Positions 9,831 to 56,053 of a DNA stretch of 64,000 nucleotides are shown here, in pieces. The notes under the pieces were generated by a model. The model did not search any database. It was given only the letters and a program-made list of their open reading frames with translations, and was not told where the DNA came from. Source of the DNA: Trueperaceae bacterium (lineage in GTDB: Bacteria; Deinococcota; Deinococci; Deinococcales; Trueperaceae); NCBI GenBank assembly GCA_965215565.1, contig CBDCDZ010000004.1, positions 2,368,001 to 2,432,000 of the forward strand, given 5' to 3'. A program made the translations under genes and the position numbers. Numbering within the stretch: the first letter of the stretch is position 1; every line of letters begins with the position of its first letter.

Positions 9831-10364
9831 ATGCTCCGCCGTCACGCTCTACCTTGTTCCCCACATAATGATTTACATGACGACCCGCACAATGACCTGC
9901 GCGACAGCTTTTACAGTAACCTCGTATCACGCTGCACCCTCGCCCTACTCGAGCGCTATTTCACCTGGCGCACGCTCGGCCTGCTCGCCTCTTGTCTGCG
10001 CCTAAGCAAACAAGAGGTTGAGACGGTCGTTCGCTACGCCGGCAGCTTGGAGGGACTCGAGGACCTCAGCTTGCAGGATTTAGAAGGGAGTGGCGTTAGC
10101 GAAAGCGCGGCGCAGAAGCTCTTCTACTTCGCGCAGTGGGACAAGCTTCAGCGTCACCTAGAATGCTACGACGCCCTGCCGGAGGACGCTGACCTCAGCG
10201 CACTTCTCGCTACCTTGACACCTATCCGCGAACGTCACTTTCGGCGCGCGCACATAAGTGCGTCGCTCATCGCTAGCTACAGGGCGTACCTCCGACATAT
10301 AGCAAGTATCATTTGGTTTGAAACGCTCTCACGATGTAGAACACCGTGCAGCACGCACATTTGA
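9831..10364 (+). CDS. Hypothetical protein with an HhH-like segment; C-terminus encoded by repeat copy A
   Basis: YAGSLEGLEDLSLQDLEGSGVSESAAQKL resembles a helix-hairpin-helix; last 21 aa lie in the repeat. Confidence 0.5.
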   Translation: MLRRHALPCSPHNDLHDDPHNDLRDSFYSNLVSRCTLALLERYFTWRTLGLLASCLRLSKQEVETVVRYAGSLEGLEDLSLQDLEGSGVSESAAQKLFYFAQWDKLQRHLECYDALPEDADLSALLATLTPIRERHFRRAHISASLIASYRAYLRHIASIIWFETLSRCRTPCSTHI

Positions 10365-10410
10365 GAATGATACTTGCGCTATTCCAATCAGTACTTATGT
10401 TAATTGCTAT
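10299..10410 (+). mobile_element. TAGCA repeat family (MITE-like), copy A, 112 bp
   Basis: ATAGCAA...TTGCTAT ends; internal stem GCAAGTATCATT/AATGATACTTGC; near-identical reverse copy at 24643-24754. Confidence 0.85.
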
Positions 10411-10428
10411 ATTGGAAAGAGGATAATT

Positions 10429-11526
10429 TTACTGCGCTGGCTCAGTGACGGGCCGAACATTGGTGATCAAGAAGACGTTGTCCTGGTAGTCACAGTTAGC
10501 GAAGCCTTCGCCGCAGCCCTGCTGCACGTAGTCCTCGGCGACGATATAAGCGTCCGCAATGACCTCACCGTCCCTACCCACAACCGGCCAAAGCCGCACG
10601 CCTAAGTTGCCATCCGTGTTCGTGCTGTACGTATCACCTACCGCGCCTACAACGATTTCGAAAGCGCCAGCGGACGTCGGAGGCAGGACTAGCTCGGCAG
10701 GACCCGTCTCGCCGGATATCGGAGGGAGCACCGACTGCCCATAGCTCGCCGCGTGAAAAAAGCTTCCTAAGCTCTCGCCACTGCGCCCGAGCAGCTCGAT
10801 GAAGTTCTCCTCGTCGCAACAGCCGTGGTAGGCGGCAAGTTGGCGCACGTAGATGGGCTCGCCCGGGTTCGCCCTCTCCCAAAAGCTAGCGCGCACCTCA
10901 TCTCCTGCGGGCACGTCGTCAGGAGATTCAGAGAGCCTTTCGCCCTCTAAGCCGATATCGGTGGTGTAGCCGAAAGCGTCTACGATCTGCTGGAGGTTGA
11001 CCTCGTCGTTGCCTTCGGGTCTTTCCATGAACACGCCGGCGAGTTGAACCTGGGCGCTGCCGCCACTCGAGCCTACTGCGAGCGCCCCTCGGCGCACTCC
11101 CCGCTCACCCTGCGACGCAGTGAATTTCACCGTAAGCTCGAACGCGCCTCCGGGCGCGATCTCTAAAGGGAGTTCGGGGCGCTGCGGCAAGGTGAACGCC
11201 ACTGTGTCCACCGCTAAGCGTGTAAGGTAAAGTGGCTCCTCGGTACTCAAATTACTCAGGCGCAACACTGCGGTATCCTGAAACTTAAGGTTCTCCCACG
11301 CAGCGCGCCCGTTGTCTTCGTCCGGGTCCGTAGGCACCCGCGCGATGCGGCTCATCGTCAGCCAGTCGTTAAAAAATCCGGGGGGCGTCTCGCCGCCGAC
11401 GTCTGCAATGAGGTTGCGAAGCTCGAGTTGCCCACTCGCTTCGGGCACACCTCTCTCGCCGCAAGCGGTGATGAAGAGGCCGAGAAGTAAGAGGCTTAAA
11501 AGGTGTAGATGACGTGATGTGCGCAT
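10429..11526 (-). CDS. Lipoprotein with an Ig-like (ASH/choice-of-anchor D-like) domain
   Basis: Lipobox ITAC; LPLEIAPGGAFELTVKF Ig motif; C-terminal DYQDNVF. Confidence 0.7.
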   Translation of the reverse strand: MRTSRHLHLLSLLLLGLFITACGERGVPEASGQLELRNLIADVGGETPPGFFNDWLTMSRIARVPTDPDEDNGRAAWENLKFQDTAVLRLSNLSTEEPLYLTRLAVDTVAFTLPQRPELPLEIAPGGAFELTVKFTASQGERGVRRGALAVGSSGGSAQVQLAGVFMERPEGNDEVNLQQIVDAFGYTTDIGLEGERLSESPDDVPAGDEVRASFWERANPGEPIYVRQLAAYHGCCDEENFIELLGRSGESLGSFFHAASYGQSVLPPISGETGPAELVLPPTSAGAFEIVVGAVGDTYSTNTDGNLGVRLWPVVGRDGEVIADAYIVAEDYVQQGCGEGFANCDYQDNVFLITNVRPVTEPAQ

Positions 11527-11856
11527 GGCATTCTCCTGATGGGCTTAGGTAGCAACAAAAAACCGCGGGCAGTGTTGCGCGCAGAAACCGCAATCCTCAG
11601 TTACTGACCTTTGGCATTAAGGTAAGCTAGGCGAGAGTATAGCGGTCTCCACGGTGAGAGACAGTTATACAGCATGATACCTAACCTCTAAACGAGTGAT
11701 GGTGTAAATGACCCAGGCGTCGGAGAAGTTCCGTGTAGGCAAGTCTTACACCGACTCACCTTGAAAAGGTCGCAAAAAGTCACATCATCTCAACGAGTAG
11801 AAAGTGTTAGGAGTTCCAAGACATACCGAGACCGGGTGCCGCAGTTCTCAACTCAT

Positions 11857-12016
11857 ATAGCACTTCTAGAACTTACTGAGACAGATTGCCGCAGATCTCT
11901 GTCCGCAAGGACTAGCGGGATTTCATCTCTGAAAGTGGGTGCTCATCAATGCTTTCTACAGTGAGAGTGTTGCTTTGCAAAACTTACGTACACTCAAACC
12001 AGATGATACCTGCTAA
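11857..12016 (-). mobile_element. TAGCA repeat family copy C, with two micro-insertions
   Basis: Ends ...CAAACCAGATGATACCTGCTA; aligns to copies D and K. Confidence 0.8.
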
Positions 12017-12173
12017 TAGACCGGACTTTAATACCTGCTACGTGCGCGACATAAACGAAACGAGCAGGGAGATTCATGAATTTCTCCTACATTCGCCTCT
12101 TTCTGTGGCTTTTCCAGCGCGGTTTACCAGTATAAATGTAAGTCCCTATGCAGAAATAAACCAAACTGTCAAG

Positions 12174-12239
12174 ATGGGAAGAATCAAGGTAGTCGAACTA
12201 AGCGAAGCAGAGCGCCAAGCCCTCGAACTATGCCTAATA
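12174..12239 (+). pseudogene. Putative IS630-like transposase N-terminal stub
   Basis: MGRIKVVELSEAERQALE resembles IS630-family N-termini; reads directly into repeat copy D. Confidence 0.45.
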
Positions 12240-12352
12240 ATAGCAGGTATCATCTGGTTTGAAACACTCTTACTGTAAAGAACACCATCTAGCACGCACA
12301 TTGTGAGATGACATCTGCGCTCATCTGTCTCAGTATATTTTGGAAGTGCTAT
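12240..12352 (+). mobile_element. TAGCA repeat family copy D, 113 bp
   Basis: ATAGCAGGTATCATCTGGTTTGAAAC...GTCTCAGTATATTTTGGAAGTGCTAT. Confidence 0.85.
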
Positions 12353-12503
12353 AAGTAGCGTAGGCACGAAAGCAAAGTCTGGGAGACGACCCTCTTCGGC
12401 GACTTCATGAAACCCATCTGTATACTTTCAGGTTGTTCAAGCTCTTCCTTGTAAGAACCTTGTCATGATAAACTTGCTATAAAGATTAACGAGGTGTTCA
12501 TAC

Positions 12504-12779
12504 ATGAAATTATCGAAGCACCAACGAGAACAGCATAGAGGCGCGGCCCACCAGCTCATTCAGCGCATCGAAAGCCGCCTGGAACCCCAGGGGCGGCGCT
12601 ACGGCGCGAATGAGGGCGAGCGCATCGCCCAGAAGGTCAGCTTTTGCAAGGAGCGGTTGTGCCGTGACCCTAAAGATAAAGAGCTGCTCACCATCAATAT
12701 GGAGCTTGCGGACCTCTTCTACCTGACCAGCAACGCGGCGAAGAGTGCGCCGCGCCAGAAGCCTCATTACACACACTAA
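12504..12779 (+). CDS. Hypothetical small protein
   Basis: RBS GAGGTG upstream of ATG; 91 aa. Confidence 0.55.
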   Translation: MKLSKHQREQHRGAAHQLIQRIESRLEPQGRRYGANEGERIAQKVSFCKERLCRDPKDKELLTINMELADLFYLTSNAAKSAPRQKPHYTH

Positions 12780-12822
12780 GCCCAACACGTACTAAACCTA
12801 GTGCTGACAGGTCTTGACGCCT

Positions 12823-13458
12823 TCAGCGCGCGTGCGCAAGCCTCTCTGCGAAGAGCGGAGGTAGAACGCCGTCGGCCGTCGGCAGCGTGCAGGGCTCCGT
12901 CAACGCATCTGTAAGTGACACGTCCGCGCTGTCTTTGGTGACCGCATCGTACCCGATGGTTAGGGCGTCGAGACCGCACCGCGCCGTATAAGCGTAACGC
13001 CAAGCTTCGGCGTACCCCTCGGCGGGTACACAGTAGTAAGCGCCGTAAGCGCAACCCTCCCGCGCAAACGCATTGTGGCTGAAGCCCAGATGCGCGGCGT
13101 CTGCGCAGTGCCCGACCTCGTGAAACACCACCGCGAGATGCTCTTCTCGACTCGCGTACTTGGCGAGCCAACTATCGATGTAGACGTAACAGGTCTGCGT
13201 TTCTCTGGCAAAGACGAAGTATCCGAGCGACGAAAACCCTTCCAAACTCACCAGATGATAGCGCAGGCGCAGCCCGCCTACCTCGGCAGACCAGGTTTCA
13301 GCGGGGAGTGCGCGCAACTGGGCAGCGTTCGGAAACTCGTAGGGCGACGCGCCCTCGGCGCGCACGTCCGACTGAGCCGCCGCGCAGCCAAAACTCAGCA
13401 GCGCGAGTAGCGCGGTACATAAACGCCGTAATGCTACCTGCCCCCTCACGGCGTTCAT
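12823..13458 (-). CDS. Secreted zinc metallopeptidase-like protein (HEXXH)
   Basis: Signal peptide, VVFHEVGHC, downstream E.YAE; ATGA overlap with the upstream ORF. Confidence 0.6.
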   Translation of the reverse strand: MNAVRGQVALRRLCTALLALLSFGCAAAQSDVRAEGASPYEFPNAAQLRALPAETWSAEVGGLRLRYHLVSLEGFSSLGYFVFARETQTCYVYIDSWLAKYASREEHLAVVFHEVGHCADAAHLGFSHNAFAREGCAYGAYYCVPAEGYAEAWRYAYTARCGLDALTIGYDAVTKDSADVSLTDALTEPCTLPTADGVLPPLFAERLAHAR

Positions 13459-13730
13459 GGCAGCGAGATGGGCGCGAAGATATCGCCGGGCGCGTCCTTG
13501 TAACGCAGAATCGCGGCGATCATCAGCGCGGCGGTGTAGTGAAACTGCGGAAAGCCTAGGCAAAAAGCGACGAAGAAGAGCGAGACGATGGTGAGCTGCC
13601 AGGTGACTCGGGCGCTCAAGCTAGGTGCGTCCGCTTGCGGATCTACATATGGGTCTAAATACGTGTCGGCATCTGTTACCGTGCCTATTTTCAATTCTGT
13701 TTTCAGTTTCTTCCGTAAATGCGTGCTCAT
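13455..13730 (-). CDS. Small membrane protein
   Basis: Two hydrophobic segments; RBS AGGGGG; coupled to the downstream gene. Confidence 0.55.
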   Translation of the reverse strand: MSTHLRKKLKTELKIGTVTDADTYLDPYVDPQADAPSLSARVTWQLTIVSLFFVAFCLGFPQFHYTAALMIAAILRYKDAPGDIFAPISLP

Positions 13731-13863
13731 AAAACCCCCTGTTACAGTTCGGTCCGTATCGCGCCGTGCGTTCTAAAGCGTTGAGCGAGTGTACGCAAGT
13801 CGGTGTTACACCGCCGTTCCTGAGCGAGAACCCAAGTTCAAGTTCTTGTCTGCAGAAGCTAGG

Positions 13864-13879
13864 TGTGAAGTTTTCCACA
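13864..13879. promoter_or_regulatory. CRP-like box TGTGA-N6-CCACA
   Basis: 9/10 match to TGTGA-N6-TCACA in the divergent region upstream of pta. Confidence 0.5.
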
Positions 13880-14065
13880 TAAGCGTACCATGAGAAGCGC
13901 GTTGTAGCCCGAACGATGAAGGAAGAGGTAATACGAGGTTGAGTTTACGGAAGAGTTGGCGGCACTGCCCACAGTCACACGAGGGGGTGCTGGGTAACCT
14001 TCTAGATAGATTTGGAGCAAGCCCCAACCCCTCGTGATCAACAAGAATTTCGCAAAAGGAGACCT

Positions 14066-16231
14066 ATGGTTCAGTACATCATGACGGTTCCGACCGGCGT
14101 GCGCGTCGGTTTGACGACGGTATCCGTGGGTCTCGTTCACGCGCTCGATAGGCGCGGCAGGGCGGTGGGCTTCGCCAAGCCCATCGCGCAGCGCCACCTT
14201 TCGGACACGGGACCAGAGCGCTCGACGCGGCTCGTGGAAATGGTCTCGAGCCTCACCCCGCCTACACCCATCGCGATGGAACGCGCCGAAGACCTGTACG
14301 GGCGCGGCGAGCAAAACCAGCTTTTAGAAGAGGTCGTCGTCCGGGCGCAAGAAGCGGCGCAGGGCGCAGACATCGTTATTTTAGAGGGGCTCGTCTCGAC
14401 GCCGCAGCAACCTTACGCGGCGGGGCTCAACGCGAGCGTGGCGAGGAGTTTAGACGCCGATATCATCATCGTCACCACGCCCGGCGAGCGTAGCCCGGAG
14501 GCACTTTCAGACGCGCTCGAGCTGACCGCCAGAGACTTCGGCGGCGTGACCCATCCGCGCGTCCTGGGCTGCGTCTTAAACCAGGTCGGCGCGCCCCAGA
14601 GCAGCGGCTTTTTGCAGCTCGATCTGCCCTCCGAAGAGGAGATGACCGAGCGGACGCGCCGCCGCACCGAAGCGCTCGCGCAAGCCGACGTCTTTAGAGG
14701 CGACTTCAAGCTGCTCGGCTGCGTCCCGTGGAGCCGTGACCTGCTCGCACCGAGAGTGCGCGACGTTGCGCGTCTATTAGACGCGCAGGTACTGAACGCG
14801 GGCGATCTGGAGCGGCGCGTCACCGACGTCGCGCTCGGCGCGAGCACGGTGCGCAACGCGGCGCAGCGGCTCCTGCCCGGCACGCTCTTTATCACAGCGG
14901 GCGACCGCGACGACCTCGTTTTAGCGGCGGCGATGGCGGCGCTGAACGGTCAGCCCATCGCCGCCCTGCTGCTGACCAACGACCGCAGACCTGACGATAA
15001 CCTCCTCGAACTCTGCCGCCAGGGTCTAGAGACGGGCTTGCCTATCCTGCTCGTGCCGCAAGACTCCTTTCAGTCGGCGCTGAACGTTCGGGAGATGAAC
15101 TTAGAAGTCCCGCTCGACGACCGCGAACGCATCGACCTCACGATCAGCAGCGTAGCGACGCGCCTCGACGTCGAGGCGCTCGAAGCCAGACTTCAGCTCA
15201 ACCCGGACGAGCGGCGGCTCAGCCCGCCCGCCTTCCGTCACCTCTTAGTCGAACGCGCTAAGGACGCGCGCAAGCGCGTCGTGCTGCCCGAGGGGAGCGA
15301 GCCGCGCACCCTGCAAGCCGCGAGCATGTGCGAAGAGCGGGGCGTCGCGCATTGCATCCTCTTGGCGGACCCAGGCGAGGTGCAGCGCGTCGCGGCGCGG
15401 CAGGGCGTCCGGCTGCACGAAGGGTTGGAGATCATCTCGCCGCAAGAGGTCATAGGCGACTACGTTGCGCCGCTCGTCGAGCGGCGCAAGCATAAAGGGA
15501 TGACGGCCGCCGTCGCTGAAGAAGCGCTGCAAGACACCGTCATGTTGGGAACGATGATGCTCGCACAGGGCGAGGTGGACGGGCTCGTCTCGGGCGCGGT
15601 CCACACCACCGCCAACACGATCCGCCCCGCCTTTCAGCTCATCAAGACCGCGCCCGAAGTCAAGGTGGTCTCCTCCGTGTTCTTCATGTGCTTGCCCGAG
15701 CAGGTCTTGGTCTACGGCGACTGCGCGGTGAATCCTGACCCCAACCCCGAAGAGCTGGCGGACATCGCTGTGCGCAGCGCCGAGTCCGCGCACACCTTTG
15801 GCATCGAGCCGCGCGTGGCGATGCTTTCGTACAGCACGGGCACCTCGGGCACCGGAAGCGACGTGGAAAAGGTTGTGGAGGCCACCCGACTTGCCCAAGC
15901 CGCCCGCCCCGACCTCTTGATCGACGGACCTCTCCAGTACGACGCGGCGGCGATTCGCGCCGTCGCCGAGAGTAAAGCGCCTGACAGCCGAGTGGCAGGG
16001 CGGGCGACGGTCTTCATCTTTCCCGACCTCAACACGGGCAACACCACCTACAAAGCGGTGCAGCGCAGCGCAAACGTGATCAGCATCGGCCCAATGCTCC
16101 AGGGCTTGCGCAAACCCGTCAACGACCTCTCGAGAGGTGCCCTAGTCGAAGACATCATCTATACGGTTGCCCTCACTGCGATTCAGGCGGCGCAGGTGGA
16201 AGAAGTGGAGGAGGCTCGAGTCGAGGTTTGA
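14066..16231 (+). CDS. pta: Phosphate acetyltransferase (long form with DRTGG domain)
   Basis: RBS AGGAG; LPEGSEPR, GAVHTTANTIRP, DCAVNPDP, GNTTYKAVQR, PVNDLSRG. Confidence 0.97.
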   Translation: MVQYIMTVPTGVRVGLTTVSVGLVHALDRRGRAVGFAKPIAQRHLSDTGPERSTRLVEMVSSLTPPTPIAMERAEDLYGRGEQNQLLEEVVVRAQEAAQGADIVILEGLVSTPQQPYAAGLNASVARSLDADIIIVTTPGERSPEALSDALELTARDFGGVTHPRVLGCVLNQVGAPQSSGFLQLDLPSEEEMTERTRRRTEALAQADVFRGDFKLLGCVPWSRDLLAPRVRDVARLLDAQVLNAGDLERRVTDVALGASTVRNAAQRLLPGTLFITAGDRDDLVLAAAMAALNGQPIAALLLTNDRRPDDNLLELCRQGLETGLPILLVPQDSFQSALNVREMNLEVPLDDRERIDLTISSVATRLDVEALEARLQLNPDERRLSPPAFRHLLVERAKDARKRVVLPEGSEPRTLQAASMCEERGVAHCILLADPGEVQRVAARQGVRLHEGLEIISPQEVIGDYVAPLVERRKHKGMTAAVAEEALQDTVMLGTMMLAQGEVDGLVSGAVHTTANTIRPAFQLIKTAPEVKVVSSVFFMCLPEQVLVYGDCAVNPDPNPEELADIAVRSAESAHTFGIEPRVAMLSYSTGTSGTGSDVEKVVEATRLAQAARPDLLIDGPLQYDAAAIRAVAESKAPDSRVAGRATVFIFPDLNTGNTTYKAVQRSANVISIGPMLQGLRKPVNDLSRGALVEDIIYTVALTAIQAAQVEEVEEARVEV

Positions 16232-16786: not shown

Positions 16787-16788
16787 GC

Positions 16789-19700
16789 TCAGGGGGTCAG
16801 GAGCGCGGGCTCGTCGGCGACGGGCTGCCTGTCGTCTTGGAGGGGCTCGAGTACCTCTTCGGTGTTCAGCACCGAAATCGCGTCCTCGCCGCCCTCCGCG
16901 TTGCCAAAGGGGAGCGCGAGGCTGCCCCAGTCATCATGGTCACGCAAGGTGCTCAAGTCGTCGTCGTCGTTGAGATCGAACTCGAGGTTGCTCTGCGCCG
17001 CGCCGTCGTTGTTGAAGTCGACGAACGCCGCACCCCGCCCGAGCCCACCATTTTCATTTAAGCTGCGTTCATTGAGAGGCGCGCCGCTGCCGTCCGAGTA
17101 GTCGATAACGAAATCGTCGCCGAAGGGCGAGTTGGCGAAGTCGCGGAGGTCGCCCTCGAAGTAGCGGCTGTAGAGGTAGCGCTCCCCGGCGGCGTCGCCC
17201 GTCGCGGGTCCGATGCCCGCCACGGTGTAGAGGTAGTTCATCACGCTCAGGTAGTTGGGCTTGTCGTTCGTGTCGTCGTCGCCACCATGCTCCAAGCCTA
17301 AGTTGTGCCCGAGTTCATGCATGAACGTACCAGCCTGAAAGTTCGCCATAACCGCTTCGCTGTAGCCTAAGTTACCCAGGGTCACGAAGAAGTCGTTGCC
17401 GCCCACCTCGCCCCTGCCCACGGAGCCGGGCGCGCCGTTCACCTGCTGCGACAGCGCGAACACCGCGTAGTGAAACACTTGGCGGCGCGTGATGTCCATG
17501 TATTCGGCTTTGATCTCAAAGAAGTTGGCGTGTCCTTCGCCCGTTTCGAAGAAAGCAATGCCTTGACTGAGGGGCACTACGGGTCTGCCGCCGCCTAAAT
17601 TATAGGCGTCCGGCGAGAACGACGCGCTGAAGAGTGTGCCCGCGTCGAGGTGAAGGCTGATGTCTTCCTTCGCAAAGGCGGCGACAACCTTATTCAGCGC
17701 GGCGCGTTGCGGCACTACGCCCGTGTCGGCGATGTTCATATAGTCCACCTCGACAAAGATGTCGGACTGCGCGGTGCGCGCGCCCATTGCGAAGAGGTCG
17801 AGCCCCGCGAAGGTGCCACCCGCGGCTTCGGCGCTGTCGGGGATGCCGTCGTCGTCGTCGTCACGCGCGCCATTAGGCACGTCGTTCGGACCGCCCGCCG
17901 TCGCGAAGGTGTTCAGGCTCCAGTCGTCCGCAGCGTCCGTGTCGGTATTGTCTTCGTCTCTCGCTAAAGATTCAGCGCCGCCTAACGCGGGCGCACCGCC
18001 GCCGCCCCACGCGCCCGCGCTCGCGGGCTCCTCAGCGCTGTTGCCAAAGCGCACGAAGTCGAGCGTCGCGCCGTCCTCTAGGAGTTCGGCGAAGCCGTCC
18101 TCACTCCAAGCGGGCACGGCGTCGCCCTCACGCACGTGCACGTGACGCGGGCCACCAAACATCTCATCGTCCACTTCGCTGATGATGAGCGCGTAGCCGC
18201 CCGCGGAGATATTGAGGGGCGGCAGCGAGAAGACTGCGTTGCCTCTCGCTCTGAAAGGCGAGGTGCGCCCGCTCGAGGGGCTGCGCAGCGCGTAGTCCTC
18301 CAAGTTGAGGGTGTCATCCGAAGCGTTGTAGACCTCTACCCAGTGGGCGCTGCCGGGACCTGAGTTGCTCACTTCGGTGATGACGAGCGTCGGCTCGGCG
18401 GCGCTCGGCGCGTCCGGCTGGACCACCTCGACGAACTTGCTCGCCGTCGCGCGCGCCCCGTCGTCGTCCTCTAAGGTGAGCGTGACGGTGTAGTCACCTG
18501 CTTCTTCGTAGACATGCTCGACTTGGACGCCTTCGCCCGCTTCGCCGTCGCCGAAGTCCCAGGTGTAGGCGGCGACGCGGCCGTCCGGGTCTGTTGAGGC
18601 GGAGGCATCGAAATTCACAACGAGGGGCACGTCGCCCTCACTGGGCGCGAAGCTGAAGAGAACGCTCGGCGCTTGATTGGGCGTTTCGGGCGGCGGGGGC
18701 GGCGCGGCGCTCACCTCGAAGGTTTTCTCTGCTTGGGCGCTCTTGCCGCCGTCGTCGGTCACGGTGAGCCCGACGGTGTAGGTGCCCGCTTCGGCGTAGG
18801 TGTGGCTCACGCTCTCGCCCTCGCCCACTTCGCCGTCGCCGAAGTCCCAGGTATAGGAAACGACGCGGCCGTCCGGGTCTTCCGAGGCTGAGGCGTCGAA
18901 CGCGCCTGCTAGTTCGTCAAAGGTTGCGCTAAAGGCAGCTTGGGGGGCGCTGTTCTCCGGCGGCGTCTGCGCCACCTCAACGGACTTCGTTACCTGTGCA
19001 CTCGCGCCCTCGTCATCGGTGACGGTGAGGGTCACGTCGAACGTGCCCGCGGCCGCGTAGGTGTGGCTCACGCTCTCGCCTTCACCTGTTTCACCGTCGC
19101 CGAAAGTCCAAGTGTAAGCCTCAACACTACCGTCCGCATCTTCCGAGGCGGAGGCGTCAAAGCTCACTGACAGCTCAGCCGCCGAAAAGGTGAAGTCGGC
19201 GCTCGGCGCTTCGTTGAGGTCGGGCGTGCCGGGCGGAGACGCGCTCACCACCTGAACGGACTTCTCCACTGTGCTGCTTTTACCCTCGTTATCCGTAACG
19301 GTGAGCGTGACGGCATACGTGCCCACCGCTGCGTAAACGTGACTCACGCTTTCGCCCTCGCCCGTTGCGCCGTCGCCGAAGGTCCAAGTGTAGGCGGCGA
19401 CGCTACCGTCCGCGTCCGCCGAGGCGGAGGCGTCGAACGTCACACTCAACGGGTTAGCCTCAGCCGCCGAAAAGGTGAAGTCGGCGCTCGGCGCTTCGTT
19501 GAGGTCAGGCGTGCCGGGCGTGTCCGGCGCGTCGCTCACGATGATAGTGGCAGTGGCGCTCTTGCTGGAGTCGGCGACGCTCGTCGCCGTAAGAGTGTAT
19601 TCGCCGGACGCAGTCGGTGCGGTGTACGTCGCCGCTGTCCCGTCCGCCGTGAAGCTCGAGTCCCCGCTGCTCGCCGCCCACGTCACCTCGGCGTTATCCG

Positions 19701-20403
19701 TCCCCATGACCTCTGCGCTAAAGGTGCGGCTCGCTCCCGGCTCGAGCGTCTCGCTCGCCGGAGTGATGCTCACGCCGATTTCGCTCACCGTAATGGTGGC
19801 CGTGGCGCTCTTGCTGGAGTCGGCAACGCTCGTCGCGGTGAGCGAATACGTACCTGGTGCATCCGGCGCGGTGTACGTCGCCCTTGCGCCGTCGGCCTCT
19901 ACCGCGCCGCCCTCCACTTGCCAGGTGACGCTCTGGTCGTCCGCTTCGGTCACGGACGCCGTGAAAACTTGCGTCTGCCTCGGCGCGAGCGCCACCACAC
20001 CTGGGCTCAGTGTGACGTTGACCTCGCCCGGCGGCAACACGATGGGCTCCGACACGCTGACCTCTACCGTCTGCTCGGCGCTACCTAGCTCATTGGTTGC
20101 ACGGAGCGTGTAGAGCGTGCTTTCGCTCGGCGAGACGACGACGTTGTCGCTTCCCGTTACGTCGCCCAGTCCCGACGTAGCCGGTTCTGATGCGAGCGTG
20201 ACCTGGGGCGGCGGCTCGCCGGTGACACGCCAACTCAGCTTCGTGGAGCCTCCCTGATCGAGCGTCTCCGGCTCAGCGCTAAACGCGCCGATCTCCGGCG
20301 CTTGGTCTGGGATAAAGGGGGCGGAGGTCTCCTCGTCGTCCGAACAAGCGACGAGAGAGATGAGCAGGAGGAAAACTAGGTAGAACCAGCGAATATGCAA
20401 CAC
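16789..20403 (-). CDS. Large lipoprotein: Ig-like repeats, 4 PKD domains, lamin-tail-like domain, zinc metalloprotease domain
   Basis: Lipobox LVAC; four FDASAS...W(T/D)FGDG repeats; LVITEV/WVEVYN; HELGHNLGLEH followed by SVMNY Met-turn. Confidence 0.85.
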   Translation of the reverse strand: MLHIRWFYLVFLLLISLVACSDDEETSAPFIPDQAPEIGAFSAEPETLDQGGSTKLSWRVTGEPPPQVTLASEPATSGLGDVTGSDNVVVSPSESTLYTLRATNELGSAEQTVEVSVSEPIVLPPGEVNVTLSPGVVALAPRQTQVFTASVTEADDQSVTWQVEGGAVEADGARATYTAPDAPGTYSLTATSVADSSKSATATITVSEIGVSITPASETLEPGASRTFSAEVMGTDNAEVTWAASSGDSSFTADGTAATYTAPTASGEYTLTATSVADSSKSATATIIVSDAPDTPGTPDLNEAPSADFTFSAAEANPLSVTFDASASADADGSVAAYTWTFGDGATGEGESVSHVYAAVGTYAVTLTVTDNEGKSSTVEKSVQVVSASPPGTPDLNEAPSADFTFSAAELSVSFDASASEDADGSVEAYTWTFGDGETGEGESVSHTYAAAGTFDVTLTVTDDEGASAQVTKSVEVAQTPPENSAPQAAFSATFDELAGAFDASASEDPDGRVVSYTWDFGDGEVGEGESVSHTYAEAGTYTVGLTVTDDGGKSAQAEKTFEVSAAPPPPPETPNQAPSVLFSFAPSEGDVPLVVNFDASASTDPDGRVAAYTWDFGDGEAGEGVQVEHVYEEAGDYTVTLTLEDDDGARATASKFVEVVQPDAPSAAEPTLVITEVSNSGPGSAHWVEVYNASDDTLNLEDYALRSPSSGRTSPFRARGNAVFSLPPLNISAGGYALIISEVDDEMFGGPRHVHVREGDAVPAWSEDGFAELLEDGATLDFVRFGNSAEEPASAGAWGGGGAPALGGAESLARDEDNTDTDAADDWSLNTFATAGGPNDVPNGARDDDDDGIPDSAEAAGGTFAGLDLFAMGARTAQSDIFVEVDYMNIADTGVVPQRAALNKVVAAFAKEDISLHLDAGTLFSASFSPDAYNLGGGRPVVPLSQGIAFFETGEGHANFFEIKAEYMDITRRQVFHYAVFALSQQVNGAPGSVGRGEVGGNDFFVTLGNLGYSEAVMANFQAGTFMHELGHNLGLEHGGDDDTNDKPNYLSVMNYLYTVAGIGPATGDAAGERYLYSRYFEGDLRDFANSPFGDDFVIDYSDGSGAPLNERSLNENGGLGRGAAFVDFNNDGAAQSNLEFDLNDDDDLSTLRDHDDWGSLALPFGNAEGGEDAISVLNTEEVLEPLQDDRQPVADEPALLTP

Positions 20404-24642: not shown

Positions 24643-24754
24643 AGAGCAATTAACATAAGTACTGATTGGAATAGCGCAAGTATCATTCTCAAATGTGCGT
24701 GCTACACGGTGTTCTACATCGTGAGAGCGTCTCAAACCAAATGATACTTGCTAT
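24643..24754 (-). mobile_element. TAGCA repeat family copy B, 112 bp
   Basis: Reverse complement of copy A with about 3 differences. Confidence 0.85.
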
Positions 24755-29328: not shown

Positions 29329-29441
29329 GTAGCAGTTCCACGACATACTGAGACAGTTGAGCGCAAATATCATCCCTCGAAGTGCGTGCTAGACTGTTCA
29401 TCTCTCACTAAGGGTGTTTCTGACCAGATGATACCTGCTAT
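29329..29441 (-). mobile_element. TAGCA repeat family copy E, 113 bp
   Basis: TAGCAGTTCCACGACATACTGAGAC...GACCAGATGATACCTGCTAT. Confidence 0.85.
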
Positions 29442-32696: not shown

Positions 32697-32796
32697 AGTG
32701 GCTCCTTAGTGGTCACTTTTTAGTAGTTTAGCACGACTCGAGCCCCAACCACAAAAAAGCGCACCTGCCGAAACAGATGCGCCCTGATGCTAAGTT

Positions 32797-32884
32797 TGTA
32801 TCACGCAGAAATCATCTCTGAAAGTGCGTGCTAATCTGGCAGCTTAAACACCCAGAGCGTTTGTGACCAGATGAGGTTCCGCTA
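32797..32884 (-). mobile_element. TAGCA repeat family copy F, short diverged form
   Basis: GCAGAAATCATCT...AGTGCGTGCTA...GACCAGATGAGGTTCCGCTA. Confidence 0.7.
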
Positions 32885-34851: not shown

Positions 34852-34867
34852 AATTTTTGGTAGTTCG

Positions 34868-34951
34868 GCTAGCACGGGTATCATCTATAAACGTATGAGC
34901 TAAGCGGTGGCTTCTCTACTCATAGCGTCTGTGACCAGATAATACCTGCTA
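34868..34951 (-). mobile_element. TAGCA repeat family copy G, short form, inside the mrp operon
   Basis: GGGTATCATCT...GACCAGATAATACCTGCTA; its terminal TAG is the mrpE stop codon. Confidence 0.75.
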
Positions 34952-44520: not shown

Positions 44521-44583
44521 AGCAATCCAGTCGAGCTGGACGGTACAGTGAGCAATGAGTGAAAATCTTCAGACTCATTGCTC
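44521..44583. repeat. TGAGCAA-type palindromic repeat, shared with 61089-61299
   Basis: 35-nt hairpin with 2 mismatches to 61265-61299, plus AGCAATCCAGTCRAGCTGG at both loci. Confidence 0.75.
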
Positions 44584-44628
44584 GTTGCTTTTAACTTTTC
44601 TCAGTGCCTATTGCTCCCGGCTGAGGGC

Positions 44629-45651: not shown

Positions 45652-45755
45652 GTTTGCCTCCTTAAAAACGCTCAACAGCATAGTCGCGTGAAGTTGACAA
45701 CGTATGTAAGATAGGCGCATACTTGCGATGAAGGGTTTTTCAGCGGTCACTGCGC

Positions 45756-45866
45756 TTGTATCACGCAGATATCATCTCTAAACGTGCGCGTTGCATGGTG
45801 TTAATTTTAGTGAGAGCGTTGATGACCAGCTCCGAACGTAGTGAGACAGACTTTGATACCTGCTAT
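45756..45866 (-). mobile_element. TAGCA repeat family copy H, short form with a 24-nt insertion
   Basis: GCAGATATCATCT...GACCAG[CTCCGAACGTAGTGAGACAGACTT]TGATACCTGCTAT. Confidence 0.75.
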
Positions 45867-48384: not shown

Positions 48385-48399
48385 GGATATCCGAACGTG

Positions 48400-48876: not shown

Positions 48877-48890
48877 TTTGCGGCTCGGAC

Positions 48891-49979: not shown

Positions 49980-50000
49980 TGTAACCGGGTACTCCAACGC

Positions 50001-50029
50001 GCAGGGACGGGTTTAGAACCCGCCCCCAC
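50001..50029 (-). repeat. REP-like palindrome
   Basis: GTGGGGGCGGGTTCTAAACCCGTCCCTGC resembles GTAG-type REPs; single copy in the window. Confidence 0.45.
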
Positions 50030-50091
50030 ACACTTGTATTCATCTAAACGCAGCACCAAACTGTAGGAGGATTTCATCCCCCTACAGTGCT

Positions 50092-50475
50092 TTACTGCTC
50101 TGCGCCCTCAGGTAAAAAAGCGGCGGAGTCGTAGTAGGTCCGAAAGCGCACGACTTCGCCCCCTTCGGTATCAAAGGAGCTGACGCCTTGATAGTCGATG
50201 TCGTGGCCGTTCGCGAGTTTGCCCTTAGACTCCCACTCGAGCACCACCGTCTCGTCATCCTCCGTGACTTTGAAAAACTCAGTGCTGATGGTATCAAAAG
50301 GCTCTAAGTACTCCTGCCAGAACCGCGTCGCCTCCTCTTTGCCTTCGTACGTTTTATGCGTCAGCCGCGTCAGCTCTGCCCCGTCGCTGAACAACTCGAC
50401 GAGGGCGTCCACCTGGTTTTCCTTTTCGGTGGTCTGCAGCGCGTTCATGAACTTCTCCGCAATTTCGCTTGCCAT
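50092..50475 (-). CDS. SnoaL/NTF2-like protein
   Basis: LFSDGAEL, LEW...G, RFRTYYD. Confidence 0.8.
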   Translation of the reverse strand: MASEIAEKFMNALQTTEKENQVDALVELFSDGAELTRLTHKTYEGKEEATRFWQEYLEPFDTISTEFFKVTEDDETVVLEWESKGKLANGHDIDYQGVSSFDTEGGEVVRFRTYYDSAAFLPEGAEQ

Positions 50476-50693
50476 TGCTACCTCCTGGTGAAATCCAGCT
50501 TACCGATTTACGCTCCAAACAATAGCGTTCGGGCGCAAAATGTGTAGGGTTGCGTCTCGAAGCTCGAGCTTCGAGACAGAAATATCGGTTGCGGCAATTT
50601 ATAGAGGGCGATCAGGCATCAGAATTCAGCTTGAAGATGATGCTAAATTCTGACTACCCAAAACCCCGCCGCCTTTATTCCACCTGCGCTCAA

Positions 50694-51470
50694 CTACCCC
50701 TGCAGCAGCGACTGCGCCCCGTCGATCCACACCTCGGTCCCGGTGATGTGGCTCGACGCCTCCGACGCTAAAAACGCCACGAGTTGCGCGACTTGCTCCG
50801 AAGAACCAGGCTCGCCGTCCGTGAGAGGGATTTTGCCCGCCGGGTACTTCACGGGTTCGCCCGCTTGGTCTAGGTCCTCGCGTTCCGTATTCTGGTCAAT
50901 CTGTGTGTCGATCATGCCGGGGCAGATCACGTTGACGCGGATGCGGTCTTTGGCAAGCTCGAGAGCGAGCATCTTGGTCATGGCAACCTGCGCGGCTTTG
51001 GTACTTGAGTAGGCTGTTGCGCCGCTATTAACGAAGTTGCGCGTGCCGTTGACCGAAGAGGTCACGATGACCGAGCCGCCGCGCGCTCTAAGGTGCGGCA
51101 CGGCATATTTAAGGGTGAAAAAGGTTCCGTTCAGGTTGATGTCTACCGTTTTGCGGAACTCGTCTGGCTCGAGTTCGTCAATCGGAGCCCACGTGCCGTT
51201 GACGCCCGCGTTCGCGAAGACGATGTCCAGACGTCCATACCTCTCCATAATCTGTGCGTAGGCGTTTTTTAAGTCATCGACTTCGGAAATATCTGCCGTG
51301 ACAGCTAGCGCTTCACCGCCTTCACTCTCGATCTCTTCAACGACCGCGTCTAGGTCCTCTTTCGTCCGTCCTGAAATGACGACTCTAGCACCTCTTTGTG
51401 CGAGCAACTTCGCGCTCGCCGCGCCGATGCCGGAGCCGCCGCCCGTGATAAAAGCAACTTTGTCCTTCAC
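50694..51470 (-). CDS. Short-chain dehydrogenase/reductase
   Basis: TGGGSGIG, NAG, YSSTK, ITG.E..IDG. Confidence 0.93.
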   Translation of the reverse strand: MKDKVAFITGGGSGIGAASAKLLAQRGARVVISGRTKEDLDAVVEEIESEGGEALAVTADISEVDDLKNAYAQIMERYGRLDIVFANAGVNGTWAPIDELEPDEFRKTVDINLNGTFFTLKYAVPHLRARGGSVIVTSSVNGTRNFVNSGATAYSSTKAAQVAMTKMLALELAKDRIRVNVICPGMIDTQIDQNTEREDLDQAGEPVKYPAGKIPLTDGEPGSSEQVAQLVAFLASEASSHITGTEVWIDGAQSLLQG

Positions 51471-51726
51471 AGTTTCCCCTCCTAAACGTATGCTAGGGAG
51501 GAGCGGCTCGGATAACTGAAGGGGAGCTTACAGGATGCAAGTAGCAGAAACCGAAGAGGTCATACTCGTACGCTGAATTTATGTATACTGCTAGCGGTTC
51601 CGTCGCTCGACGCGCTCCCACTTGGTAGGCTGCGCGTAGACTAGGTTGGCACAACATCATCCACTTTATTACCTCATAGCAGACTCGTCCGCCCCTGGTC
51701 TAGCGTCTCATCCTTGGAGGTTTTTG

Positions 51727-52707
51727 GTGCTTAGTATACGCGCGCTTATCAGTCTTTTCCTTCTCACGATTCTTGCGGCGTGTGGCGGCGGTGCTACGTT
51801 CGTAGCGCCAGCAGAGGCTACTGTCAACGGTGTCACGAGCCTTGACCGAGAAACGGGGGCAGCCGAGCTTAGCGTGAGCGGACTCGACGCCAATAACGGT
51901 GTGGTGGCGAGCGGTACGCTTAGCAACGTGTCCGCTACGGTTGCACAGGCGGGGCTCGAGGTTAAAAGCGGCGTATGCGGCGGCGGACAGATCAGCGCGT
52001 TGGGTCCGGTTGTCGCCGCGTTGACTTTCGATGCGTCGCCATCACTGCAGGGCGGCTGTCTCGGCTGCGGCGCTCCTACCGATCCTTTCAGCGAGAACGG
52101 GAGCACGGTGCGGCGCGAGGGCGGCTTGGAATTTGTAGCGCGGATGGCAGAGGACGCTCGAGCGGCTGTTTCGTACTTTAATCAGAGCGCAGGTTTCGTC
52201 AACGTACAGGGCTTTACGGAGGATGAGGAGGCGCTCAGGTCAGCGGTGGTCACAGCGACGTCGCCTGAAGCGATCGGCAGCTTAACGCCTCTATGGTCTG
52301 CAAGTGTCAGCACGGTAGACCTACTAGGCGATGTTCAGGGCGACAACCGCATTGCAATCGTCTTCACCGATGGTCAAGACACGACCTCTGCTGACCCCGA
52401 TGAAGTTGCGGCGGCGGCGCGCGCTTCGGGCGTGCGGGTGTTTTACATCGGTCTCGGCGAGACCACCAACGTGAGCGAGATGATTGATATTGCGCAAGCC
52501 ACCGAGCCCAGCGGTCTCTACGTTTCGGCGAGAGACAGGTCCGAACTCCTCAGCGCGTTCGAAGGCGTGATCAACGGCTCTCAAGCCTCCGGTTGTATCG
52601 ACTTGGTCTTTACGCCCGTTCCTTCTGCTGGCGAGACCGTAAGCGGCGGGCTCACTTTCGATATTAATGGGGGCACGTTTGAGAGCGATTACGAGGTGAC
52701 GTTTTAG
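51727..52707 (+). CDS. VWA-domain lipoprotein
   Basis: GGAGG RBS; lipobox LAAC; MIDAS-like DASPS, TPLW, FTDGQD. Confidence 0.8.
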   Translation: MLSIRALISLFLLTILAACGGGATFVAPAEATVNGVTSLDRETGAAELSVSGLDANNGVVASGTLSNVSATVAQAGLEVKSGVCGGGQISALGPVVAALTFDASPSLQGGCLGCGAPTDPFSENGSTVRREGGLEFVARMAEDARAAVSYFNQSAGFVNVQGFTEDEEALRSAVVTATSPEAIGSLTPLWSASVSTVDLLGDVQGDNRIAIVFTDGQDTTSADPDEVAAAARASGVRVFYIGLGETTNVSEMIDIAQATEPSGLYVSARDRSELLSAFEGVINGSQASGCIDLVFTPVPSAGETVSGGLTFDINGGTFESDYEVTF

Positions 52708-52712
52708 CCTTT

Positions 52713-52825
52713 GTAGCAAGCATCATTTGGTTTGAGCCAGTCTCACGTTAGAGAACTTGGGCGAACACGCACATTCTTAAATGATGCTTGCGCTATCCCA
52801 ATTCAGCACTTCTGTGAACTGCTTT
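52713..52825 (+). mobile_element. TAGCA repeat family copy I
   Basis: GCAAGCATCATT/AATGATGCTTGC stem with a compensatory pair relative to copy A. Confidence 0.8.
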
Positions 52826-52845
52826 AGTTAGGCAAGTAGCGTACA

Positions 52846-52881
52846 GAAAAGCGTCTCAACATCAAAGTTGAGACGCTTTTC
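52846..52881. terminator. Bidirectional terminator
   Basis: 15-bp perfect stem GAAAAGCGTCTCAAC/GTTGAGACGCTTTTC between convergent genes. Confidence 0.8.
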
Positions 52882-52889
52882 CAGGTTGC

Positions 52890-54455
52890 CTACAGCGGGA
52901 TGTTCCCGTGCTTCTTAAAGGGTCTTTCTTCTACTTTACCTTCCAACATCCGCAGATGCCGCACGAGCTGTCTGCGCGTGTCCTTAGGATCGATCACGTC
53001 GTCGATGTAGCCGCGCCCCGCCGCCCAGTACGGGTTGTCGAAACGCTTCTTGTATTCGTCGATGCGGGCGGCGCGCGCCATCTTGGGTTGCTCCGAGCCG
53101 GCAATCTCACGGCGGTAGATGATATTCGCTGCGCCTTCCGCGCCCATGACCGCCACCGCCGAGGTGGGCCAAGCGAGCACCACGTCCGCGCCCATGTCCC
53201 TAGAATTCATCGCCAAGTACGCGCCGCCGTAGCTCTTGCGCACGATGAGCGTGATTTTGGGAACCGTCGCTTCGGCGTAGGCGTAGAGCATCTTCGCGCC
53301 GTGCCGGATGATGCCCGCGTGCTCTTGGGCGACGCCTGGCAAAAAGCCCGTCACATCCACAAAGGTCAGAATCGGAACGTTGAAGCAGTCGCAGGTGCGG
53401 ATGAAGCGCGACGCTTTATCTGAGGCGTCGATATTGAGCGTCCCCGCCATGTGACGCGGATTATTCGCCACGATTCCCACCGACTGCCCACCGAGCCGCG
53501 CAAAACCGCAGAGGATGTTTTTGGCAAACTCAGGCTGCACCTCTAAAAAGTGCTTGTCGTCCACGACGGTTTTAATAACTTCCGTCATCGGATAAGGGCG
53601 GCGCTGGTCGGGGTGGACGATGGACAGAACTTCGGGCGTTTCGCGCCCTATAGGGTCTCGAGTCTCTTGCAGTGGCGTACGCTCTTTCGCGGACTGGGGC
53701 AGAAAGGAGAGCAGTTCGCGAATCGTCTCTAAAACGCCTTCGTCGTCCGCCGCCTCGAAATGCGCCACGCCCGACTTGCGGTTGTGCACGTCCGCCCCGC
53801 CTAAACCTTCAAACGTCACGTTCTCTTTCGTCACCGACTTGATGACTTCCGGCCCGGTGATGAACATATACGACGAGCCTTTCGCCATCAGCACAAAGTC
53901 GGTCAGCGCAGGGCTATAGACCGCGCCGCCCGCGCACGGTCCTAAAATCGCCGAAATCTGCGGCACCACGCCCGAATAGATGGCGTTGCGGTAGAAGACC
54001 TCGCCGTAGCCCGAGAGCGAGTCCACACCCTCTTGAATTCGCGCACCCGCCGAATCGTTGAGCCCGACGATCGGCGCACCCGTTTTCACCGCTAGGTCCA
54101 TGACTTTAGCGATTTTCTGCGCGTGCATCTTCCCTAGTGAGCCGCCCAACACGGTGAAGTCCTGGCTGAACACGAAGACCGTGCGCCCCTCCACCTTGCC
54201 GTAGCCCGTCACCACGCCCTCGCCGGGCGCGTCCACGCCCTGCATCATCTCGCCGCCCAAGTGCTCGACGAACGCACCCAACTCCACGAAAGTTCCTTCG
54301 TCTAAGAGGGTGTGGATGCGCTCCCTAGCGGTGAGCTTGCCCTGCTCGTGTTGTTTCTTGATGCGCTTCTCGCCGCCGCCCTTCTCGACGCGCTTACGGC
54401 GCTCTTCCATCTCGGCGGTCAGTTCGTTCATCCAGGCTAAGGTATCGTCAGACAT
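52890..54455 (-). CDS. pccB: Acyl-CoA (propionyl-CoA) carboxylase beta subunit
   Basis: GKLTARER, GARIQEG, GPCAGGAVYSPALTD, KKHGNIPL. Confidence 0.92.
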   Translation of the reverse strand: MSDDTLAWMNELTAEMEERRKRVEKGGGEKRIKKQHEQGKLTARERIHTLLDEGTFVELGAFVEHLGGEMMQGVDAPGEGVVTGYGKVEGRTVFVFSQDFTVLGGSLGKMHAQKIAKVMDLAVKTGAPIVGLNDSAGARIQEGVDSLSGYGEVFYRNAIYSGVVPQISAILGPCAGGAVYSPALTDFVLMAKGSSYMFITGPEVIKSVTKENVTFEGLGGADVHNRKSGVAHFEAADDEGVLETIRELLSFLPQSAKERTPLQETRDPIGRETPEVLSIVHPDQRRPYPMTEVIKTVVDDKHFLEVQPEFAKNILCGFARLGGQSVGIVANNPRHMAGTLNIDASDKASRFIRTCDCFNVPILTFVDVTGFLPGVAQEHAGIIRHGAKMLYAYAEATVPKITLIVRKSYGGAYLAMNSRDMGADVVLAWPTSAVAVMGAEGAANIIYRREIAGSEQPKMARAARIDEYKKRFDNPYWAAGRGYIDDVIDPKDTRRQLVRHLRMLEGKVEERPFKKHGNIPL

Positions 54456-54464
54456 AGGTCTCCT

Positions 54465-54575
54465 CAGCAGGTATCATCCGGTCGTAAACGCTCTCTATGG
54501 ATCAAGCTGCTTAACGCAAACATCGTAGGCTGATACCTGCGGCAATTTTCCTCAGTTAATCTTGGAGCTACTGCT
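54465..54575 (+). mobile_element. TAGCA repeat family copy J, abutting the pccB RBS
   Basis: GCAGGTATCA/TGATACCTGC stem; CTCAG...TTGGA...CTGCT right end. Confidence 0.7.
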
Positions 54576-54715
54576 TACTCCAAGTCTCCATGATGCCTAA
54601 CCATACCCGGATAAAAGAAGGGATGTAGGTGTTGTTCGGCTGAACTGGACGAAACTGGTAGGTTGAAAACAAAAAAGGCGGCTTTGCGCCGCCTCTATTT
54701 TCTCTAAAATTGAGC

Positions 54716-55390
54716 TTAGTCTCGAGCCATGAAAATCTGCAGCACGTACCAGAACATCAGCGCCACCGACGCGAAGAGCGCCAAGGACGCCGCGACGTAG
54801 CGCTCTTGCGGGTAGTGATGGAGCACGCCCGAGGTTTGGTAGAGGATGGACGCGCCCGCGAGCACCACCATCGCTACCGAAAAAAACGTGCCGAGCCCAA
54901 AGCCGAAGATAAAACCTGCGACGATCACGAGCAGCGCGCCTATGAAGCCCCACTTGAGCAGCCCACCCAAAAAGCTGAAGTCGCGCCGCTCGCTCCAAGC
55001 GACGGCTGTGAGACCGGAGAAGCCGATGAGCGTGACGAGCGCCGCACTCTGGATGACGCCGGGCGCGTAAGACTGCGCGACGAAGAGGAGCGGCACAAAG
55101 ATAATTGCCTCCGCGACGACGAAACCAATGAGCGCCGCGTACTGCACCTCCGGCGACGTGGAGCGCGCCGCGAAGTGGTTCGCCACCCCGCTCACGCCGA
55201 TGAAGACGAACAGAACTACCAGCCAAGGCAAGCTGAGCAAAAAGCTCGCGATAGGAAAGGCTAGACCCGTCTGAAAAAAGATGACCTCTAGAGCGGTGAA
55301 CCCCAAGATCGCGCCCAAGAGGTGCGCGTAGGTTTGGGTAACGAAGCTCGAGCGGTCCGTTACGGTTACATTTGGTGTGATTGAAGCCAT
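54716..55390 (-). CDS. Bax inhibitor-1/YccA family membrane protein
   Basis: About 7 transmembrane segments; DFSFLG, ILYQTS, LFAS...MFWY.L. Confidence 0.88.
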   Translation of the reverse strand: MASITPNVTVTDRSSFVTQTYAHLLGAILGFTALEVIFFQTGLAFPIASFLLSLPWLVVLFVFIGVSGVANHFAARSTSPEVQYAALIGFVVAEAIIFVPLLFVAQSYAPGVIQSAALVTLIGFSGLTAVAWSERRDFSFLGGLLKWGFIGALLVIVAGFIFGFGLGTFFSVAMVVLAGASILYQTSGVLHHYPQERYVAASLALFASVALMFWYVLQIFMARD

Positions 55391-55562
55391 AGTGTCCTTC
55401 TCCCGTACATAGTGTGGGGCGCGCGCTCACGGAGGGCAAACGCGCCCTGGTATAAAGAAGTTTAACGAGTCTAGGGCGCGCTCTAAACGGATAACATCAC
55501 GGCGAGAGCGGTTCTTAGAGAACGGTGAATGTAGCGTTAAGGCATCTATCAGGAGGCTCATA

Positions 55563-55841
55563 GTGACATTTTTTATCGTAGCTAAAGACGCGGCGGACGC
55601 TTCGGAGCGCCGCCAAAAGGTGCGAGACCAACACCTGCGCGAGATCGAGTCGCACGTCAAGGCGAAGCGCGTCCTCATGGGCGGGGCAATCTTAGATGAC
55701 GATGGCAATGTCATCGGCTCGGGGTTGGTGGCGGAATTTTCCTCGAGGGAGACCTTGGACGAATTTTTGCAGAGCGACATCTATACCAGAGAAGGCGTCT
55801 GGGAGAGCTTCGAGATTTATCCATTTAAGCGGGCTGTCTAA
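55563..55841 (+). CDS. YciI family protein
   Basis: R...R..HL, GG..LD, GS, D.Y...GVW. Confidence 0.88.
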   Translation: MTFFIVAKDAADASERRQKVRDQHLREIESHVKAKRVLMGGAILDDDGNVIGSGLVAEFSSRETLDEFLQSDIYTREGVWESFEIYPFKRAV

Positions 55842-55844
55842 CTA

Positions 55845-56053
55845 ATAGCAGGTATCATCTGGTTTGAGTGCGCGGAGCGATGCGAAGCAACACTCTCACT
55901 ATGCAAAGCGGTGTTGCTAAGCAGCAAACTTGCGCAACTAGCACGCACATTCGAAGATGAAATCCCGCAACGGCAGGGCGGCCTGCCCGTAACGCTAGTC
56001 CTTGCGGACAGAGATCTGCGCTCATCCGTCTCAGTATGTCTTGGAACTGCTAC
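55845..56053 (+). mobile_element. TAGCA repeat family copy K, 209 bp, four micro-insertions (one nested)
   Basis: Both ends match copies D/E; insertions at the same sites as in copy C. Confidence 0.85.

Follow-up and report, generated by a model that had tools for sequence, protein, structure and literature searches.

RUP of Streptococcus pneumoniae, which is paired with IS630-Spn1 (PMC2229807), ERIC/MITEEc1 and Correia are the closest described counterparts of the repeat analysed here, a non-coding element of 111 bp, bounded by TAGCA…TGCTA and dispersed over a stretch of 64,000 nucleotides (the window; positions 2,368,001 to 2,432,000 of contig CBDCDZ010000004.1) in the Trueperaceae bacterium assembly GCA_965215565.1. 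Like these repeats as they are described (PMC2229807, PMC3049150), the element is about 110 bp long, intergenic and non-coding, has IS630-like ends and a target duplication, contains an internal stem and inserts into insertion sequence (IS) genes and into itself. RUP, ERIC and Correia have TA at their termini and symmetrical ends in these accounts, whereas the ends of the present element share only bases 1–6, 8 and 20–24, duplications of 3 bp instead of TA flank half of its complete copies, and its subfamilies match different transposases. Sequences of the three repeats were compared with the element through Rfam and plasmid records only, and otherwise by description. By all testable features except symmetrical repeats the element is a MITE (miniature inverted-repeat transposable element), although as a whole it is not a TA-type MITE: it is short, has no transposase gene, occurs in high copy number, shows duplications with empty alleles and has a right end in common with an autonomous element. 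It is very probably an IS630-family MITE that transposases of this family mobilised in trans in the manner proposed below.

Targeting of TA with a 2-bp stagger, 'strictly at TA', is the described hallmark of IS630/Tc1/mariner enzymes (PMC5481204, PMC2170065). ISY100 (ISTcSa) is reported with a 24-bp inverted repeat and a TA duplication, with 34 of 39 insertions at TA and two at AA/TT (PMC2170065). The partners of the MITE resemble ISY100 and the IS630/Tc1/mariner group in being about 1 kb long with imperfect inverted repeats and a helix-turn-helix (HTH) plus DDE transposase, but their clade makes loose duplications of 3 bp (sometimes 4 bp) and carries a 2-residue insertion. Unlike those of ISAzo13/TP36 and Zator, these transposases are scored by NF033545 as true IS630 members and branch within the TA-type IS630 proteins, in a tree constructed without ISAzo13 proteins. 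ISAzo13/TP36 and Zator are IS630-related enzymes that make 3-bp duplications. They are described as separate clades (PMC8533490).

Modular length variation is also described for BOX elements (PMC3049150), but the modules here are several unrelated hairpins of 19–25 bp that occupy fixed internal positions and do not form one tandem unit. The SNRs of D. radiodurans (PMC1978522) are a described parallel in Deinococcota of a mosaic of small repeats. No description of the element family or of a 3-bp IS630 group was found in the literature, ISfinder being outside the search. IS630 and Deinococcota were not among the terms matched in a MITE review, and the main text of a MITE survey of 183,000 genomes has no Deinococcota, although its supplements could hold copies (PMC11602168).

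Copy number and distribution of the repeat family

Genomes are designated G000 (the source genome), G001 and G002 (sister Trueperaceae species) and by further G numbers, with L numbers for loci in them. The initial annotation had listed 11 homologous copies in the window and predicted hundreds genome-wide. All 11 are real, with coordinates accurate to within about 1–10 bases, and the prediction was borne out by profile scanning. A profile built on six window copies gave 570 matches in G000 and the refined profile 603, which merged into 543 loci. All matches were located on the 4.39-Mb chromosome, of which the loci make up 1.45 %, with none on the three small contigs, and a reversed-genome control of the search gave no matches. 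Both ends were called at 306 loci, the left end only at 120, the right end only at 72 and neither at 45. Almost all loci were intergenic (534 of 543), as judged from gene calls by an in-house codon model rather than annotation. The window, with 11 copies against a mean of 7.9 per 64 kb, is matched in density by the 24 % of windows that reach 11.

The family had not been recognised as a described one, and no Rfam counterpart emerged: a search of the window against Rfam 15 at the gathering score gave no matches, and four related loci matched only tRNAs, away from the element. Neither a tRNA scan nor 72,556 plasmid records contained a match to it. A 16-mer of the left end was present, with at most one mismatch, in 27 of 128 genomes of the family Trueperaceae, and among the first of these loci, inspected by eye, those in nine genera were genuine copies and those in seven genomes matched by chance. 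A search of 205 genomes from the four other families of the order, the Deinococcus-like family included, gave no exact copy of the 16-mer. One subfamily, represented in the window by copy A, was 98–99 % identical at unrelated sites in three species (window 10300–10409 compared with L025:8082 and L026:8161 in G001 and L024:7243 in G002), where genes are approximately 75–90 % identical. This suggests recent activity or spread across species. Two DNA read runs of one sample, which may be the source sample, covered copies at 60–80-fold depth, and no clean empty-site joint was found in them.

Target duplications and empty sites

Every boundary offset of the element was scored against shuffled flanks. 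The strongest signal was TAGCA…TGCTA plus a 3-bp direct repeat, seen in 116 of 245 copies where the shuffled flanks predict 7.1, and the terminal TA is part of the element. A TA target had been expected as the rule. This did not hold, since the commonest duplication among the 306 two-ended copies was a loose 3 bp (151 copies), followed by TA (82 copies), with other 2-bp duplications in three copies and none in 70. The 3-bp duplications comprised 45 different, AT-rich triplets, and the preferred context of 130 clean sites was WWC-NNN-GWW.

Empty sites, proposed earlier as a check of mobility, were present in relatives both as 2-letter TA gaps and as 3-letter gaps in a comparison that covered 1.83 Mb from G001 and G002. 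For 51 two-ended copies of these two genomes, ten alignments spanned the G000 site and four of these showed a clean 2-letter TA gap. For the 306 G000 copies there were 16 site-spanning alignments, with two clean and two spread 3-letter gaps and the rest too diverged. One of these insertions interrupts an IS630 pseudogene. Among 22 paralogous empty sites in G000, a 3-letter gap was seen for 11 of 13 sites of the 3-bp class and a 2-letter gap for three of five of the TA class, with one 4-letter case. The empty sites confirm both duplication modes, TA and 3-bp.

Right-end subfamilies and partner transposases

Right-end subfamilies were defined as clusters of the last 26 bases. The cluster of 176 copies (131 with 3-bp duplications, none with TA) had its best match in an IS630 element of G001, L058 (22 of 26 bases), and a cluster of 22 copies (16 with 3-bp, none with TA) in L063 (22 of 26) and L059 (21 of 26). 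Two further clusters, of 54 copies (50 with TA, none with 3-bp) and 26 copies (25 with TA, none with 3-bp), together had TA in 75 of 80 copies; their best matches were the TA-type elements L055 and L050 (18 of 26 and 16 of 26). A cluster of four copies included two with TA, and 24 copies fell in small clusters. Duplication type in G000 follows the right end, with no TA among the 198 copies of the first two groups and no 3-bp duplication among the 80 of the other two. Outside G000, a G140 copy with TA flanks matched TA-type L053/L054 at 20 of 26 bases. An IS630 element with matching ends had been called for, and L058 and L063 answer to it, in genomes other than G000. With these ends, the duplications and the empty sites, the earlier proposal of an IS630-derived, non-autonomous mobile family stood.

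Matches to PF01710 were found in 20 of 128 family genomes, and several of these loci were 920–1050-bp elements with TAGC ends. Partners with 3-bp duplications measured 983–1051 bp and had TAGCA ends, imperfect inverted repeats of about 26 bp and an IS630 transposase with HTH_Tnp_IS630 and DDE_3 domains. Duplications of 3 bp flanked L058 (TAA/TAA), L063 and L032, each present in one copy, and 3-bp repeats were seen at all five copies of L059 in G002. An element of G142 with 18 loci had 3-bp duplications in eight of 12 two-ended copies, and two more were 4 bp by eye. Among 46 metagenome loci, 27 were two-ended, seven of them with 3-bp, three with 4-bp and none with TA duplications. The other TAGC-ended elements L027, L029, L050, L053, L054 and L055 had TA flanks. 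The TA-target rule of the IS630 family is thus not followed by the clade of L058, L059, L063, L028 and L032, which has 3-bp duplications. In G002, two 1013-bp IS630 copies (L071, L073, L075) had reciprocally swapped 3-bp flanks, CTA/TTA and TTA/CTA, which suggests a rearrangement between them.

The partner transposases scored above the cut-offs for PF01710, PF13358 and NF033545 (123 bits against 100 for the last), and their fold was nearest to Sleeping Beauty and Mos1. The transposase of L058 is encoded in overlapping frames of 120 and 201 aa and that of L056 in one frame of 317 aa. Transposases associated with 3-bp duplications formed one clade with support of 100/98 in a 30-row tree, which omits the long rows L053 and L027, and of 95 in a 46-row quick tree; the clade was unresolved in a 12-row tree. 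Clustering of its proteins, at an identity of 47 % or higher, gave about 45 groups. A 2-residue insertion was present in all 22 clade rows and in no other row, a few residues before an S/T-V-D/N motif that aligns with the corresponding stretch of Sleeping Beauty. This motif is likely the equivalent of the Mos1 loop T-(V/I)-(N/T), which is described as reading a flipped adenine (PMC5481204). The Mos1 profile alignment covers the C-terminal half only, and the loop was mapped by its position and through the alignment with Sleeping Beauty.

A single transposase could make both duplication types, the subfamily split reflecting age or target context. The left end and core common to all subfamilies would agree with this, as would the 4-bp duplications that also occur in the 3-bp clade and a young subfamily of G020 (L191–L206, L009 and L014) with both 2- and 3-bp duplications among near-identical copies. 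However, the split in G000 is nearly absolute, and the protein tree divides the autonomous elements into these two classes as well, making one enzyme for both types very unlikely. The G020 subfamily, which has a CTNAG-like context, had 3-bp duplications (TGA/TCA) in eight of 15 copies, 2-bp duplications in five and none in two. It is possibly an intermediate between TA and loose 3-bp targeting; no partner transposase was found for it.

Proposed movement in trans and its significance

Under the proposed mechanism, IS630-family transposases now absent from G000 would have moved the MITE in trans. The right end would be the full putative binding site of one particular transposase, and the left end would retain the terminal TAGCA and an inner motif (bases 20–26), the latter changing in step with the right end. 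In the course of time, right ends suited to at least four lineages of transposase would have been taken up by the family, each lineage leaving its own duplication: TA from ordinary IS630 enzymes, and three loosely chosen bases in the context WWC-NNN-GWW, likely from a 3-bp stagger, from the Trueperaceae clade. Left bases 6–18 and their inverted copy at 66–78 would likely serve as an accessory binding site or as a single-strand hairpin for propagation.

Several observations weigh against this proposal. No cognate transposase was found in G000, where a PF01710 search gave no matches, tblastn with 12 DDE domains gave a single match (33 %) and inward-facing end pairs up to 4 kb apart had no cognate transposase between them. 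The TA subfamilies match TA-type elements weakly (16–18 of 26), and these elements come from other genera. Duplications were lacking in 17 of the 27 two-ended metagenome elements, for which chimeric assembly is a possible cause. The right end of the G020 subfamily is nearest to TA-type L055 (20 of 26) despite its 3-bp duplications in eight of 15 copies, so either the simple right-end rule would fail there or the enzyme of G020 is still to be found. Finally, left bases 6–18 match no transposase end and are nonetheless the most constrained part of the element (three internal-branch against 36 tip changes in a 181-copy tree), which a plain MITE model does not predict. Three broken IS630 pieces in G000 were ruled out as the partner, their ends differing from those of the element.

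A wider proposal, to which we give somewhat less than even credence, is that the Trueperaceae IS630 clade left the TA/2-bp rule for a near-random 3-bp stagger through a small change that included the 2-residue insertion, placed immediately ahead of the putative adenine-reading loop, and that the MITE is a 'universal passenger' with swapped right ends and a fixed left end that would serve any of these enzymes, its subfamilies recording a TA to TNA to NNN series. Any causal role of the insertion in the target switch is putative. Tools such as Himar and Sleeping Beauty derive from the IS630/Tc1/mariner group. With naturally occurring close relatives whose stagger and target differ, hundreds of recorded insertion sites and a single diagnostic indel, the basis of TA specificity becomes directly testable, and the non-TA clade could yield a small transposase free of the TA-site limit. 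The MITE is likewise a natural map of the end bases needed by a transposase, plus an unexplained constant 13-mer. As a mere repeat family the element is ordinary; the interest lies in the transposase clade that departs from TA and in a left end that a plain MITE model does not predict.

Left end and internal inverted arm

The initial annotation had given TAGCA(G/A/C)-N13-TGA as the pattern of both ends of the long form. Most ends fit it, but the left end of copy E does not, and an internal site near base 50 also fits. The inequality of the ends, the different transposases of the subfamilies and the IS110 and hairpin inserts had been missed. Identity between left and right ends was 0.7–0.98 at bases 1–6 and 8, below 0.3 at most of bases 9–18 and 0.57–0.86 at bases 20–24. 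Left bases 1–5 and 20–26 resemble transposase ends, although the left end as a whole matches at only 15 of 26 bases, and bases 19–26 vary with the right end: of 22 copies, 13 have CAGCTACA here and 15 have TTGCTACA in the right end. No autonomous element with left-type ends was found among 30 loci from 27 genomes. The change ratio was 0.08 at left bases 6–18 against 0.82–0.89 in free stretches (P=6e-7), and these bases were constant across nine genera. The inverted copy at 66–78 is able to pair with bases 3–15.

This hairpin (bases 3–15 with 66–78) could instead mark a structured RNA or host regulatory module under host selection, with mobility incidental. Stem pairs retain 95–99 % pairing and include two compensatory pairs, 6:75 and 14:67, although both compensatory changes come from one lineage and the stem is kept only in part in other genera. 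Changes on the + strand lean to G-T over A-C (15 against two on internal branches, 35 against 27 at tips; P approximately 0.02, parsimony-dependent), as a structured RNA would predict, but the fold of the entire element does not stand out in most copies (z +1.5 to −3.6) and there is no Rfam match. The left end lies within 60 bp of a gene start, facing it, more often than the right end (49 against 22, P=0.002), which would suit a regulatory role; −10 boxes, however, were not in excess at start-facing ends (15 of 65 against 44 of 189), and most sites are confined to one species and come with duplications and empty alleles. A host module is highly improbable on this evidence. For bases 6–18 with 66–78, as parts of a transposase-moved MITE, we lean slightly to a putative second binding site over a single-strand hairpin, the hairpin having a side role.

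Two other accounts of these features found no support. An outward extended −10 promoter was not enriched at the ends, and an independent inner MITE of 80 bp, terminating at the inverted arm, was not supported, as TA followed the arm in only two of 220 two-ended copies. The left-end 18-mer plus a few bases also occurs in tandem arrays with a 19–32-bp period and up to six units, at G000:C4:179891–179945 and 1994337–1994406, at L212 (G046) and L226 (G107) and at G108:C160:2094–2229.

Inserts within the element

Longer copies measured 129–136, 153–160, 174–186 and 197–207 bp and contained hairpins of 19–25, 43 or 52 bp at fixed sites (about 8–11, 23, 33–36, 48–50 and 68–75). The hairpins were mostly found inside the element and were rich in GNA mini-hairpins, with 174 in long copies whose additional DNA amounts to 7.4 kb. 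Helical phasing is a possible cause of the 21–23-bp steps in length, but the size of the inserts may be sufficient by itself.

An intact IS110 (315 aa) was present in seven near-identical copies (G000:C4 near 638.9k, 681.8k, 1227k, 1291k, 2530k, 3107k and 4136k) and one deleted copy (3452.6k), always at left-end base 11 with a TC core. Its 5′ non-coding region has guide-like matches to target and donor. Duplications of 3 bp are typical of other IS families, and a non-IS630 enzyme, namely this resident IS110 recombinase, a HUH/RAYT enzyme or an ISAzo13- or IS5-type transposase, might have moved the 3-bp subfamilies, the seven intact IS110 copies being tied to the element. However, the IS110 sits inside the left end and leaves the ends of the element untouched, the sole Y1 domain lies in a 1322-aa frame, and the right ends of the 3-bp type agree at 22 of 26 bases with IS630 elements that show this duplication themselves. 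Movement by such an enzyme is extremely unlikely.

Copies in the window

Both ends were present in eight of the 11 window copies, and the right end was decayed in F, G and H. The flanks had been described as often TA, which applies to a minority only. Copy A (10300..10409, + strand) and copy B (24644..24753, − strand) are 110 bp long, with TA/TA flanks, copy A belonging to a TA-duplication subfamily; they differ at three of 110 bases, in agreement with the approximately 3 nt noted initially. Duplications of 3 bp flank copies C, D and E. Copy C (11858..12015, − strand; 158 bp) consists of the core with 22- and 25-bp hairpin inserts and has the duplication TAT. It is inserted within an older remnant (11808..12040, − strand, its left end lying at 12040 and its right end at 11808; flanks ACG/ACA; read by eye), a twelfth window member whose own sequence is shortened by an internal deletion. 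Copy D (12241..12351, + strand; 111 bp) has the duplication TAA and the right-end type matching IS630 L058, and copy E (29330..29440, − strand; 111 bp) has the duplication CTA. Flanks with one mismatch were found at copy I (52714..52824, + strand; 111 bp), with a TA-type right end and TG/TA, and at copy K (55846..56052, + strand; 207 bp), with inserts at three sites of the core, a 3-bp-type right end and TAA/CAA. Copy J (54465..54576, + strand) is diverged and its duplication is gone. Copy H (approximately 45741..45865, − strand, the lower boundary being approximate) has a 23-bp insert after base 11. The decayed copies F (approximately 32787..32884, − strand) and G (approximately 34866..34951, − strand) occupy orthologous places in relatives (F in G001 and G002, G in G001), which indicates that the insertions range in age from old to recent.

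Another family of small hairpin repeats, approximately 45 bp long and with ATGAGCAAT arms, was present in the window at 44546–44586 and 61263–61303, with 120 genome-wide blastn matches. The 260–290-bp direct repeats of the window stem from the gene at 16789–20403, which encodes a protein of 1204 aa that contains several PKD domains in repetition and a lamin-tail domain and weakly matches a metallopeptidase.

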